Positions 42,136 to 45,076 of a stretch of 46,383 bases of DNA are shown here, piece by piece; the first letter of the stretch is position 1, and each line of letters starts with the position of its first letter. The translations under genes and the position numbers were made by a program. Below the pieces are notes generated by a model that did no database searches, was not told where the DNA came from, and was given only the letters and a program-made list of their open reading frames with translations. This stretch comes from a virus (lineage: Duplodnaviria; Heunggongvirae; Uroviricota; Caudoviricetes). Where the stretch lies: positions 1-46,383 of the IMG/VR virus record IMGVR_UViG_638341086_000015. One strand, 5' to 3'.

Positions 42136-42324
42136 ATGGAAACGTTATTACCAAACGTTAATACGTCTGAAGGTTGTTTTGAAATTGGTGTCACTATCAG
42201 TAACCCTGTATTTACTGAAGATGCCATTAACAAGAGAAAACACGAACGGGAGCTATTAAATAAAATATGCATTCTTTCAATGCTGGCCCGTTTACGTCCG
42301 ATACAAAAAGGATGCTGGCAATGA
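42136..42324 (+). CDS. Hypothetical 62-aa early protein
   Basis: ATG with GAGGA 8 nt upstream, directly after the inverted repeat. Confidence 0.35.
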   Translation: METLLPNVNTSEGCFEIGVTISNPVFTEDAINKRKHERELLNKICILSMLARLRPIQKGCWQ

Positions 42325-42512
42325 ATACAGCATTTGCACTTGTTCTGACAGTTTTTCTTGTTTCCGGAGAGCCAGTTGATATTGCAGTCAGTGTTCACAG
42401 GACAATGCAGGAGTGTGTGACTGCAGCAACCGAACAGAAAATTCCCGGTAACTGTTACCCGGTCGATAAAGTTATTCACCAGGATAATAACGAAATCCCG
42501 GCAGGTCTTTAA
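42321..42512 (+). CDS. Hypothetical 63-aa protein with hydrophobic N-terminus (possible exported or membrane protein)
   Basis: ATG overlapping the previous stop (ATGA), AAGGA upstream; MNTAFALVLTVFLVSG N-terminus. Confidence 0.35.
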   Translation: MNTAFALVLTVFLVSGEPVDIAVSVHRTMQECVTAATEQKIPGNCYPVDKVIHQDNNEIPAGL

Positions 42513-42604
42513 AACAGTTCCGTAATAAACATCCGATTTCATTCTTATATGCCAGCAATGGCAGGGATTTGTTCACCCTTAAATCTGTAATGAGGTAAAA
42601 CAAA

Positions 42605-45076
42605 ATGAGTAAAGTCTTTATTTGCGCCGCCATTCCGGACGAACAGGCAATAAAGGAAGAAGGTGCAGTCGCTGTAGCCACTGCCATTGAAGCTGGCGAC
42701 GAACGCCGTGCTCGAGCAAAATTTCACTGGCAATTCCTGGAACATTATCCGGCTGCTCAGGACTGCGCTTATAAATTTCTTGTTTGCGAGGATAAACCCG
42801 GTATACCCCGCCCTGCCCTCGATTCCTGGGATGCTGAATATATGCAGGAAAACCGCTGGGATGAGGAGTCTGCTTCCTTTGTCCCGGTTGAGACTGAATC
42901 CGATCCGATGAACGTCACTTTTGACAAGCTGGCCCCTGAAGTACAGAACGCTGTCATGGTTAAGTTCGACACATGTGAAAACATCACCGTTGATATGGTT
43001 ATTAGCGCACAGGAATTGTTGCAGGAAGACATGGCAACATTCGACGGACATATCGTTGAAGCGTTGATGAAAATGCCAGATGTTAACGCCATGTATCCGG
43101 AGCTTAAGCTGCATGCCATCGGGTGGGTTAAGCATAAATGTAAGCCTGGTGCCAAATGGCCCGAAATTCAGGCAGAGATGCGCATCTGGAAAAAACGTCG
43201 CGAAGGTGAACGCAAGGAAACCGGAAAATACACGTCTGTTGTTGATCTCGCCCGCGCCAGAACCAATCAACAGCACACTGAAAATTCAACAGGAAAAATC
43301 AGCCCGGTCATTGCTGCCATTCATCGCGAATACAAGCAGACATGGAAAACACTGGATGACGAACTGGCCTACGCTCTCTGGCCTGGTGATGTGGATGCCG
43401 GAAACATTGACGGCAGCATCCATCGCTGGGCAAAAAATGAAGTTATCGACAACGACCGCGAAGACTGGAAGCGTATCTCGGCATCAATGCGCAAACAGCC
43501 TGATGCCCTTCGCTACGACCGCCAGACTATTTTTGGCCTTGTCCGTGAACGTCCGATCGACATTCACAAAGACCCTGTGGCACTGAACAAATACATTACT
43601 GAATACCTGACTACAAAGGGCGTGTTTGAAGATGAAGGAAGAAATCAGAGCGCAACTGATACTCTCTCGTCGCCAGTACCAGAAACTGATGCAGTGGAAA
43701 CGGCAATTCCGGACAACGAAAAAACCGAATGCAAAGTGGAAGTCGAACCATCTGTAGAGCGTGAGGGGCCGTTCTACTTCCTCTTCACCGACAAGGATGG
43801 CGAAAAATACGGTCGCGCAAACAAACTTTCTGGTCTGGATAAGGCACTGGCTGCCGGGGCTACTGAAATCACGAAAGAAGAATATTTCGCCCGCAAAAAC
43901 GGTACATACTCAGGTTCACAACAAAATACTGGTGCATCTGACACGACCGCACAACCAGNGCCGGTAAAAGTTACCGCTGACGAAGTAAACAAAATTATGC
44001 AGGCAGCCAATATCAGCCAGCCTGACGCCGATAAGTTGCTTGCTGCCTCTCGCGGAGAATTTGTTGCAGGGATTAGCGACCCGAATGATCCGAAATGGGT
44101 TAAGGGGATCCAGACCCGCGATTCTGTAAACCAGAACCAGCATGAATCGGAACGGAACTACCAAAAAGCGGAACAAAACAGCCCAAATGCGTTACAAAAC
44201 GAGCCAGAAACGAAACAGCCTGAACCAGTGGCGCAACAGGAAGTGGAAAAAGTCTGCACCGCCTGCGGTCAGACCGGCGGCGGCAACTGCCCTGATTGTG
44301 GCGCGGTGATGGGCGACGCAACATACCAGGAAACATTCGATGAAGAGTATCAGGTTGAAGTTCAGGAAGATGATCCGGAGGAAATGGAAGGCGCTGAACA
44401 TCCACACAAGGAGAACACTGGCGGCAATCAGCATCANGNNAGCGATAATGAAACTGGCGAGACGGCAGATCTCTCAATTAAGGTGAACGGTCATCAAGAA
44501 ATCACATCCACCAGCAGGACGTGTAACCATCTAATGATCGACCTTGAAACCATGGGAAAAAATCCTGATGCCCCGATCATCTCAATAGGTGCAATATTTT
44601 TCGATCCGCAAACCGGAGATATGGGACCGGAATTTAGTAAGACTATTGATCTGGAAACTGCTGGCGGAGTCATTGATCGGGACACCATTAAATGGTGGCT
44701 TAAGCAATCACGCGAAGCGCAATCTGCCATTATGACCGATGAAATCCCGTTAGATGATGCACTGTTACAATTGCGGGAATTTATCGACGAAAACTCCGGT
44801 GAATTTTTTGTTCAGGTCTGGGGAAATGGAGCCAACTTCGACAACACGATTTTGCGCCGTTCATACGAACGGCAGGGGATCCCCTGCCCGTGGCGTTACT
44901 ACAACGATCGCGATGTACGCACAATCGTTGAGCTGGGGAAAGCCATAGACTTCGATGCCAGAACTGCTATCCCATTCGAAGGTGAGCGCCATAATGCACT
45001 TGATGACGCCCGTTATCAGGCAAAATACGTTTCAGCTATCTGGCAAAAACTGATCCCGAGTCAGGCTGATTTTTAA
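42605..45076 (+). CDS. Large early-left protein (823 aa) with central CxxC..CxxC zinc ribbon and C-terminal DnaQ-like DEDDh 3'-5' exonuclease domain
   Basis: C-terminus shows Exo motifs: [26 protein letters not shown]; central [16 protein letters not shown]; contains ambiguous bases (about 43959, 44437-44440). Confidence 0.65.

Follow-up and report, generated by a model that had tools for sequence, protein, structure and literature searches.

Positions 42136-45076 of the window (the whole 46,383-nt stretch of DNA that was analysed) make up the distal half of an early-left operon of the dicBF type in a Qin-like lambdoid Escherichia coli prophage adjoining yccA, and the 823-aa protein encoded there is, as judged from its sequence, the intact version of YdfE, whose gene is a pseudogene in K-12. 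The initial annotation had left the locus unrecognised; it is the known dicBF operon (ydfA...dicF-dicB-ydfD-ydfE) of K-12 Qin, with the large protein being intact YdfE. The operon is already published and is no new system: it includes ydfA, ydfB, ydfC, ydfD, and ydfE, with only DicF, DicB, and YdfD characterised (PMC10448788). The gene for the large protein is likewise already catalogued, as a RefSeq 3'-5' exonuclease with its own PHROG (phrog_2082) and two Pfam families (YdfE_N and YdfE_C). ydfE is among the commonest E. coli prophage genes and has a predicted function only. Our preferred reading, held with slightly better than even confidence, is that the intact YdfE of the dicBF operon is an accessory 3'->5' DNA-end exonuclease made after induction.

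Gene content of the early-left operon

The gene order across the region is cI-like repressor, oL/pL, ydfA, 124-aa ORF, DicF sRNA, dicB, ydfD, ydfE, xis, and int, with every feature on the + strand. The repressor gene and ydfA precede the DicF sRNA, and dicB, ydfD, and ydfE come after it on the same strand, an arrangement that K-12 Qin and phage Tritos share in both order and orientation; positions 41611-43371 are 95.5% identical to K-12 Qin at the DNA level. DicF (Rfam), DicB, YdfD/DUF1482, and YdfA/DUF1391 all pass curated thresholds.

The leftward unit is headed by a gene for a 238-aa cI-like repressor with HTH_3 and S24 LexA-type peptidase domains (40077..40793; Pfam HTH_3 and Peptidase_S24; PHROG 4, transcriptional repressor), which RefSeq names 'LexA family protein' in a 99.9% identical locus. 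The helix-turn-helix part resembles DicA (NF007257, 79 bits, under the cut-off of 101), but the repressors of the two prophages differ: K-12 Qin has the 135-aa DicA, whereas the window has the 238-aa LexA-type cI. Downstream of it lie a putative terminator hairpin (ACCCGCA/TGCGGGT plus T run; 40800..40822), which a weak Trp_leader-type Rfam match covers, and a putative pL/oL (TTGACT, 17-nt spacer, TACCTT; 40856..40884). The putative promoter is overlapped by a palindrome, GGTAACTCTTGTTACC (40867-40882), whose complementarity to GGTAACAATAGTTAC, located between cro and cI at 40056-40070, is 93%.

Next in order are ydfA (DUF1391; 41066..41218; Pfam PF07151, E=1.5e-27; RefSeq ydfA at the corresponding position), a 124-aa hypothetical protein in the slot of K-12 ydfB/ydfC (41230..41604; phrog_6937, E=1.5e-76; a RefSeq CDS), and DicF sRNA (41910..41961), which matches Rfam RF00039 over its full length, 1-52, with 76.7 bits against a gathering score of 48 and occupies the same position as dicF in K-12 Qin and phage Tritos. 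The 3' hairpin and T run of DicF (to ~41967) constitute a terminator upstream of dicB. The initial annotation had placed only two small ORFs and one large protein between the immunity region and xis/int, a count that leaves out ydfA, the 124-aa ORF, and DicF. The two small ORFs are indeed present but are not anonymous, being DicB and YdfD/DUF1482 by Pfam, NCBIfam, and RefSeq. dicB (42136..42324) encodes a 62-aa cell-division inhibitor (PF05358, E=6e-37; NF049927, 131 bits against a cut-off of 100; RefSeq dicB), and ydfD (42321..42512) encodes a 63-aa protein (PF07358, E=8e-25; RefSeq ydfD) that in K-12 is a lysis protein (K-12 annotation; PMC8835842). Beyond ydfE (42605..45076) are an excisionase-like gene (DUF4224; 45144..45386; PF13986; phrog_1266, excisionase) and a tyrosine integrase gene (45364..46383; an ORF ending at the window edge; RefSeq integrase), and in the matching genome yccA comes directly after the integrase gene (RefSeq).

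Searches of this region agree with the earlier statement that no N homologue is evident: the ORFs between cI and dicB, annotated or not, match other families or none in Pfam, PHROG, and NCBIfam, none of them carries an N-terminal Arg-rich motif, and the 124-aa ORF matches no N-like family. A search for the boxA part of a nut-like element identified none downstream of pL/oL. The region has no exact boxA (YGCTCTTWA), and boxA-like sequences with one mismatch occur at chance level (24 in the window vs. 28 expected), with none in the pL leader and the only nearby one, at 41284, within an ORF. Rfam identified no antitermination RNA family. No leftward-operon ORF matches N, lambda Exo, Bet, or Gam in Pfam, PHROG, or NCBIfam, and no annealase is annotated anywhere in the prophage.

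The exonuclease domain of YdfE and its predicted activity

The 823-aa ORF is uninterrupted, with four ambiguous bases giving X at aa 452, 611, and 612, and its product matches phrog_2082 end to end. Residues 1-256 are 99% identical to the IS2-truncated K-12 YdfE fragment. The K-12 Qin gene has the same place in an operon of the same order, but there IS2E interrupts it after ~256 codons, leaving a pseudogene with neither the RecE-like linker nor the exonuclease domain present here.

The intact protein is modular. An N-terminal scaffold (YdfE_N, PF27430; aa 1-345; 42605..43639) is predicted by AlphaFold as two blocks, each with pLDDT >90, comprising an alpha/beta plus helical domain (1-205), a disordered loop, and a helical domain (240-345); a fold search with the scaffold gave no informative structural match. 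There follows a small conserved domain (aa 385-435; 43757..43909; pLDDT 92-97) with the motif ERxGPFYF...GRANK...EITxEEYxARKNG, which is kept across all relatives having the scaffold; from the order of the Pfam hits, this domain is probably YdfE_C (PF27432). A long, mostly disordered linker leads to the C-terminal exonuclease domain (aa 641-813; 44525..45043). The linker includes the CxxC..CxxC element that had been noted earlier, which is made up of C551/C554 and C562/C565 (CxxC-x7-CxxC at aa 551-565, 44255..44299). The Cys element is predicted at low confidence (pLDDT about 40-60) and is absent in many relatives, and therefore is no family-defining feature.

The C-terminal domain is, as proposed in the initial annotation, a DnaQ-like 3'-5' exonuclease domain, and it belongs to the T4 DexA/EcD/Rv2179c clade. 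It matches PF16473 (Rv2179c-like 3'-5' exonuclease) with E=7e-68 and 228.2 bits against a cut-off of 27, covering the profile in full (positions 1-177 of 177), and all three Exo motifs align with DEDDh nucleases: Exo I, D646/E648; Exo II, D746; Exo III, H796/D801. The catalytic residues correspond to T4 DexA D7/E9, D119, and H186/D191, and none of them varies among 10 aligned sequences. An RNase H-like DEDD fold is predicted with pLDDT of about 83-96 over aa 641-820, and in Foldseek searches the domain retrieves DexA (8KEL/8KEN) first, then RNase T, and also 3'hExo and Orn, with probability 1.00. Among solved structures, DexA is the best match both by sequence (E=1.7e-6) and by fold (E~1e-8) and has the same DEDDh set. 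Unlike YdfE, DexA comes from a virulent phage, stands alone at 227 aa, and has extra loops, and the two are only ~21% identical over the structural alignment. A second protein, EcD, the E. coli homologue of DexA in the proposed 'HREX' defence (PMC12153337), shares 38% identity over the whole YdfE exonuclease domain and has the same catalytic residues. DexA and EcD, the closest characterised relatives, are both 3'-5' DNA exonucleases (PMC12153337).

According to our preferred reading, transcription from pL would, once repressor is lost, have to get past the DicF terminator to reach dicB-ydfD-ydfE-xis-int, and would manage this with no N/nut system; published work on K-12 detected no transcript running into ydfE. 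YdfE would then degrade DNA from free 3' ends as a Mg-dependent 3'->5' exonuclease, and its RecE-type scaffold would deliver it to the type of substrate or partner addressed by the RecE N-terminal part, which we take to be double-strand ends arising in phage replication and recombination. Such delivery, combined with activity on 3' ends, would make YdfE an accessory DNA-end-processing enzyme and not a complete Red/RecET-type system. The delivery step is drawn from domain fusions only, since the scaffold gave no informative fold match and the function of the RecE counterpart is unexplained (PMC11611040). A pro-recombination role is not obvious, because a 3'->5' exonuclease destroys the 3' tails used by annealases and RecA.

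Alternatively, YdfE could be a prophage-borne, 'HREX'-like nuclease for anti-phage defence or competitor exclusion, its DEDDh domain, like EcD, degrading incoming phage DNA, such as the cytosine-modified DNA of T-even phages, and sparing host DNA; we assign this reading about one chance in five. For EcD, a stand-alone homologue of the YdfE nuclease domain, a 2025 report describes degradation of 5hmC DNA and anti-T4 activity even at leaky expression (PMC12153337); a 189-aa EcD-like protein, found via the primer given in that paper and having A78 as published, is 38% identical to YdfE aa 644-816 (E=3e-34); and the neighbouring gene dicB is reported to be protective against phage infection (PMC6832061). 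The specificity residues, however, do not follow. DexA W152, assigned to 5hmC recognition, corresponds to Y766 in YdfE and to C, V, or A in close relatives; DexA D169 pairs with A780, albeit where the loop alignment is poor; and YdfE keeps, as D718, the 'tetramer' residue D90 that EcD has lost (A78). At the DexA W152 and D90 positions the EcD-like protein carries W132 and A78, and EcD differs from YdfE by Trp vs. Y766 and A78 vs. D718. In addition, EcD is a stand-alone 189-aa protein with no fusion, whereas YdfE is a fusion; ydfE lies within a repressor-controlled early operon, behind the DicF terminator; and ydfE matches no PADLOC model.

RNA is possible as a YdfE substrate, because the Pfam family is named after an exoribonuclease. 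Rv2179c of Mycobacterium tuberculosis, the name-giver of PF16473, belongs to the same Pfam family, which YdfE matches end to end, but Rv2179c is a bacterial protein with a single domain and a described exoribonuclease role, and it gave no direct phmmer match with YdfE in the PDB search. That YdfE is, like Rv2179c, a 3'->5' exoribonuclease that trims or degrades host or phage transcripts or sRNAs, including DicF, is in our estimation improbable. PF16473 is described as a 3'-5' exoribonuclease domain, many copies of the gene are named '3'-5' exoribonuclease' by NCBI, the structural neighbours include RNase T, 3'hExo, and oligoribonucleases, and the operon also contains an sRNA. Nevertheless, the best sequence and structure match among solved proteins is the DNA exonuclease DexA, DNA is also a substrate of RNase T, and the fusion partners of the scaffold in relatives (the RecE nuclease and a probable Rad52-like domain) are DNA-recombination proteins. 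Furthermore, because K-12 makes DicF even though its ydfE is truncated before the nuclease domain, the YdfE nuclease is not needed for DicF maturation.

Module exchange with RecE

Homology to RecE (its aa 278-591; E=4e-63) extends over YdfE aa 262-625 and takes in the Cys element, with YdfE aa 262-345 aligning to RecE 278-~360. Within the linker, the cassette shared with RecE (aa ~475-622; 44027..44470), which contains the Cys4 element, has 76.7% DNA identity over 443 nt to K-12 recE nt 1365-1765, and protein identity of 31/40 and 36/40 in two 40-aa blocks. The similarity does not make YdfE a RecE. The RecE equivalog model (NCBIfam NF007259) is failed by YdfE with 282 bits against a cut-off of 1269 and a match confined to model positions 271-600 of 877, and the RecE Pfam domains PF12684 (PD-(D/E)XK) and PF06630 (Exonuc_VIII N-terminal) are absent from YdfE, whereas the same search finds both in K-12 RecE.

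The genomic setting of the two genes is the same: ydfE, like recE of Rac, lies in an early-left operon, after a cell-division inhibitor gene and before xis/int. In Rac, recE is followed by recT; downstream of ydfE there is no recT, and the next genes are xis (DUF4224) and int. RecE has a PD-(D/E)XK nuclease for 5'->3' resection, whereas YdfE has a nuclease of the DEDDh 3'->5' type, and the join lies at the RecE nuclease domain boundary. We conclude that, relative to RecE, the PD-(D/E)XK 5'->3' domain and the downstream recT are replaced by a DEDDh domain. The seemingly missing recombination genes of the operon are explained by this module swap with respect to Rac, the RecE nuclease and recT being exchanged for a DexA-type nuclease. 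The earlier statement that Red-type recombination genes are lacking is correct for lambda-type exo, bet, and gam, but needs amendment for the large protein itself: because the middle third of YdfE is related to RecE, the operon is not devoid of recombination-related sequence. The region that YdfE shares with RecE is the one that boosts linear-linear recombineering.

The relatives of YdfE shuffle modules, with two types of N-terminal scaffold and with C-terminal partners that comprise a DEDDh nuclease, a PD-(D/E)XK nuclease plus RecT, a probable Rad52-like domain, and a short tail. One relative (P0123) combines the RecE N-terminus with a DEDDh domain; a second (P0141) combines YdfE_N with a PD-(D/E)XK domain and has a recT gene immediately downstream; and one group (P0137) combines YdfE_N with the probable Rad52-like domain and has a Gam-like gene upstream. 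In the DEDDh-type contexts that were examined (the window, L006, L040/41, L042, and Tritos), the gene is the last before xis/int, with no recT after it. That relatives join the same scaffold to the RecE nuclease, with RecT next in line, or to a probable Rad52-like domain speaks for a possible role of YdfE in recombination.

The initial annotation had suggested that the large protein may take over recombination or anti-defence roles. In its strong form, namely that a single large protein replaces the whole Red/RecET function (exo plus bet plus gam), this suggestion is very unlikely to be correct, even though ydfE occupies the slot of recE/recT in Rac and of exo/bet in lambda, has a RecE-like middle region, and lies in a leftward operon with no other recombination genes. 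YdfE has no annealase domain, relatives with a probable one existing separately; its nuclease belongs to a 3'->5' family, of opposite polarity to the 5'->3' resection type; a Gam homologue is lacking; and YdfE scores far below the cut-off of the RecE equivalog model and has neither of the RecE Pfam domains. For YdfE itself we retain the reading as an accessory DNA-end exonuclease.

The pattern of fusions is also consistent with a broader and more tentative hypothesis, to which we give less than even odds by some distance: that the non-catalytic scaffold of RecE and YdfE is a general adaptor with interchangeable effectors in enterobacterial lambdoid phages. The effectors may comprise PD-(D/E)XK 5'->3' nuclease plus RecT, DexA-type 3'->5' nuclease, Rad52-like annealase, and short helical tail, and may all be aimed at one common target at DNA ends or the replisome. 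If the adaptor hypothesis were true, the DEDDh version, present in ~2/3 of E. coli genomes, would either process ends with reversed polarity or act as an anti-phage nuclease directed by the scaffold, and the N-terminal two thirds of RecE, long unexplained, would become easier to approach.

Prevalence and selection

ydfE is covered over at least 80% of its length in 3532 of 5426 complete E. coli genomes (~65%), often in several copies, and is carried by phage genome records and active phages, including Tritos, mEp460, and Evi. Comparison with the Tritos copy yields dN/dS values of 0.125 for the N-terminal domain and 0.135 for the exonuclease domain. That ydfE is a decaying remnant with no current function in defective prophages, as the IS2-truncated pseudogene of K-12 and the IS-interrupted copies present in other strains might suggest, is highly improbable, given that the window and thousands of genomes have an uninterrupted frame, the catalytic residues are all conserved, both folded domains have dN/dS of ~0.13, and complete phage genome records carry the gene.

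The dicBF operon and its control region

The results of genome alignment establish that window positions 1290..46383 are 99.4-99.9% identical to a prophage adjoining yccA in E. coli O39:NM F8704-2 and several Shiga-toxin-type strains. The RefSeq gene order at the matching locus is LexA-family repressor, ydfA, hypothetical protein, dicB, ydfD, '3'-5' exonuclease', DUF4224 protein, integrase, and yccA, and profile searches of the window agree with these calls: that is, they detect YdfA (DUF1391), the DicF sRNA at 41910..41961 (full-length Rfam match; 76.7 bits vs. a gathering score of 48), a 62-aa dicB gene starting at 42136 (PF05358, E=6e-37; NCBIfam, 131 bits vs. 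a cut-off of 100), and a 63-aa ydfD gene at 42321..42512 (DUF1482, E=8e-25). The same gene order is found in the dicBF operon of the K-12 Qin prophage (95.5% identity to window 41611-43371) and in the complete genome of phage Tritos, the record of which annotates DicF, DicB, YdfD, and 'exonuclease VIII'; phages mEp460, Evi, and PhiR42_1 and the PPompW/Stx2a group contain nearly identical stretches. The dicBF operon comprises ydfA, -B, -C, dicF, dicB, ydfD, and ydfE (PMC10448788), and its characterised members are DicF, DicB, and YdfD only (PMC10448788; cf. PMC6832061, PMC8835842). We conclude that the region is the previously described dicBF operon, comprising DicF, DicB, YdfD, and an intact YdfE. 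The initial annotation, which had described a minimal early-left operon, was sound in its domain calls and in reporting no N, exo, bet, or gam, but missed this identity; overall, its observations were largely correct and its interpretation partly right. The operon and ydfE are already catalogued and extremely common: of 5426 complete E. coli genomes, 3532 cover at least 80% of ydfE, at a median of 2 and a maximum of 10 places per genome.

Window 1-1290 does not align to the F8704-2 prophage (NZ_CP050998.1), which is otherwise 99.4% identical and has an ISCro1 (IS66-family) element inserted in its tail-fibre region. Isolated N bases occur at window 5497, 5847, 27345, 27377, 43959, 44437, and 44439-44440. 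A sok antitoxin RNA (34571-34745, minus strand; the matching genome has an annotated hokD) and three tRNA genes (29599-29845, minus strand; Arg, Arg, and Ile in RefSeq) sit at the rightward early/late junction, with a full copy of the STnc100 sRNA family close to the tRNA genes (29329-29519, minus strand).

A GC-rich hairpin followed by a T run (40800-40822) lies 3' of the repressor gene, cI. The palindrome GTAAC-N4-GTTAC occurs three times: twice in the cro-cI intergenic stretch or at the start of cI (40056-40071 and 40105-40118) and once just past the cI terminator hairpin (40867-40882), where GGTAACTCTTGTTACC matches its cro-cI intergenic counterpart GGTAACAATAGTTAC (40056-40070). The three resemble a set of oR/oL operators for this immunity type, with 40867-40882 as putative oL and 40056-40070 as putative oR; a candidate −35 hexamer is TTGACT (40856-40861). 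DicF has a terminal hairpin and T run directly upstream of dicB, and transcription of dicB, ydfD, ydfE, xis, and int therefore requires terminator read-through. Profile searches of every ORF, annotated or unannotated, in the interval from cI to dicB returned other families or none, and no N-type protein; exo, bet, and gam were likewise absent from the leftward operon. Exact boxA is absent from the region, with one-mismatch matches occurring at chance frequency, and a permissive Rfam scan returned no antitermination RNA. The late region has an annotated Q-family antiterminator. A sub-threshold STnc100 match (41959-42168, plus strand; 40.1 bits vs. a gathering score of 47, E=1.6e-6) extends from the DicF terminator as far as the start of dicB.

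YdfE as a RecE-scaffold mosaic

The single large protein reported for this stretch is encoded by an uninterrupted 823-aa ORF (42605..45076, plus strand) with a GAGG Shine-Dalgarno sequence 8-9 nt 5' of its ATG; ambiguous bases at 43959, 44437, and 44439-40 yield X at aa 452, 611, and 612 and keep the frame. The product of K-12 ydfE, a pseudogene cut by IS2E, is 99% identical to aa 1-256, and the window gene is therefore intact ydfE. The protein is covered end to end by phrog_2082 ('exonuclease', PHROG), belongs to a 90%-identity cluster of 23,183 member sequences named 'exonuclease' or '3'-5' exoribonuclease', and has precomputed Pfam matches to PF27430 (YdfE_N), PF27432 (YdfE_C), and PF16473 (Rv2179c-like). 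AlphaFold2, with a 32-sequence alignment, confidently predicts an alpha/beta-plus-helices region (aa 1-205), a helical region (aa 240-345), two beta-hairpins plus helices (aa 385-435; ERxGPFYF...GRANK...EITxEEYxARKNG), and the exonuclease domain (aa 641-820), with disorder at aa 207-235, 346-383, 438-456, 502-548, and 567-636. Profile and structure analysis by domain upheld the proposed DEDDh exonuclease with all Exo motifs: the C-terminus matches PF16473 (E=7e-68), all five catalytic residues (D646, E648, D746, H796, D801) are present, and the closest solved relatives by sequence and fold are T4 DexA (8KEL/8KEN), then RNase T, 3'hExo, and oligoribonucleases. A single pairwise comparison, with the Tritos copy, gives a dN/dS of 0.125 over aa 1-345 and 0.135 over the nuclease domain, and of 0.33 in the linker.

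What the initial annotation did not recognise is the relation to RecE: K-12 RecE aa 278-591 aligns to YdfE aa 262-625 (E=4e-63). A cassette at YdfE aa ~475-622, carrying a 16-letter motif and the CxxC..CxxC element, is 76.7% identical to recE in DNA and 31/40 and 36/40 identical to RecE in two 40-aa protein blocks. The Cys element (C551/C554 and C562/C565 in YdfE; C517/C520 and C528/C531 in RecE) has low model confidence and is missing in many relatives that retain scaffold and nuclease; it is real and common to YdfE and RecE, but not family-defining. RecE Exonuc_VIII (aa 2-178) and PD-(D/E)XK (aa 615-850) are both missing from the window protein, which scores 282 bits against the RecE equivalog cut-off of 1269. 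The homology ends at RecE aa ~591, close to the start of the nuclease domain, placed by a review at residues 564-866. Whereas Rac has kilR...recE-recT...xis-int, the window prophage has dicB-ydfD-ydfE-xis-int, with a DexA-type domain in the place of the RecE nuclease domain and recT. We conclude that YdfE is a RecE-scaffold mosaic, a clean module swap with RecE; this swap and a candidate function are its sole interest.

Module exchange among relatives

Relatives came from a search of 1.84 billion representative proteins; their domains were then scanned and their genomic contexts inspected. P0123 joins a RecE-type N-terminus to DEDDh in a Rac-like operon (kilR, ydaE, exo, xis, int) without recT; P0136 and P0122 join Exonuc_VIII to DEDDh immediately 5' of xis/int; and P0141 joins YdfE_N and YdfE_C to PD-(D/E)XK, with a RecT-family gene next. 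Both scaffold types therefore pair with both nuclease types. No annealase gene comes next after the exonuclease gene in any DEDDh context examined, and none is annotated anywhere in the window prophage.

In P0137, P0151, P0156, P0179, and P0222, YdfE_N carries an alternative C-terminal domain, for which Rad52_Rad22 is the top Pfam family in 5/5, below threshold; a Gam-like gene lies upstream and Sipho_Gp157 downstream. At the P0137 locus (L039, 5001-7337), a YdfE_N scaffold joined to a domain that is probably a Rad52-like annealase, between these two genes, looks like a compact recombination module. P0129 (aa ~655-702; KilR upstream, xis/int downstream) and P0143 (aa ~637-683) have different N-termini and, in place of a nuclease, carry a common C-terminal tail of ~45 aa (..QQLTIAAxxGLCANPA..), a further interchangeable C-terminal module. 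The conserved motif G-x-G-x-F-S-[IV]-[DE]-x-L-[MV], absent from the window protein, recurs in disordered linkers of P0129, P0134, P0136, P0142, P0145, P0156, and others, and looks like a short docking peptide.

Candidate roles of YdfE

YdfE has a DEDDh active site intact by residues and an early-operon position, its nearest characterised relatives are DNA 3'->5' exonucleases, and its scaffold carries recombination effectors elsewhere. Most likely, YdfE would not be a full recombination system but an accessory enzyme that processes DNA ends: following induction, it would trim free DNA 3' ends, brought by its RecE-type scaffold to the partner or substrate of the non-catalytic part of RecE.

The main rival hypothesis is that YdfE may be an anti-phage exonuclease like EcD, a stand-alone E. 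coli DexA homologue that degrades 5hmC DNA and protects against T4 (2025; PMC12153337). An EcD-like 189-aa protein, recovered from viral contigs via the published primer, starting MIDTET, and carrying A78 as stated in PMC12153337, is 38% identical to YdfE aa 644-816. However, YdfE reproduces neither the 5hmC-recognition residues of that study (Y766 for W152, A780 for D169) nor its tetramerisation-loss feature (D718 is kept at the D90 position), and no PADLOC model matches. RNA is a possible substrate, given that the Pfam family takes its name from an exoribonuclease. YdfE is unlikely to take part in DicF maturation, since K-12 produces DicF with a truncated ydfE.

The EcD-like exonuclease (primer match, A78) is encoded on viral contigs L013, L018, L028, L029, L031, and L034, and the proposed 'bacterial' HREX defence gene is therefore itself carried by phages or prophages.
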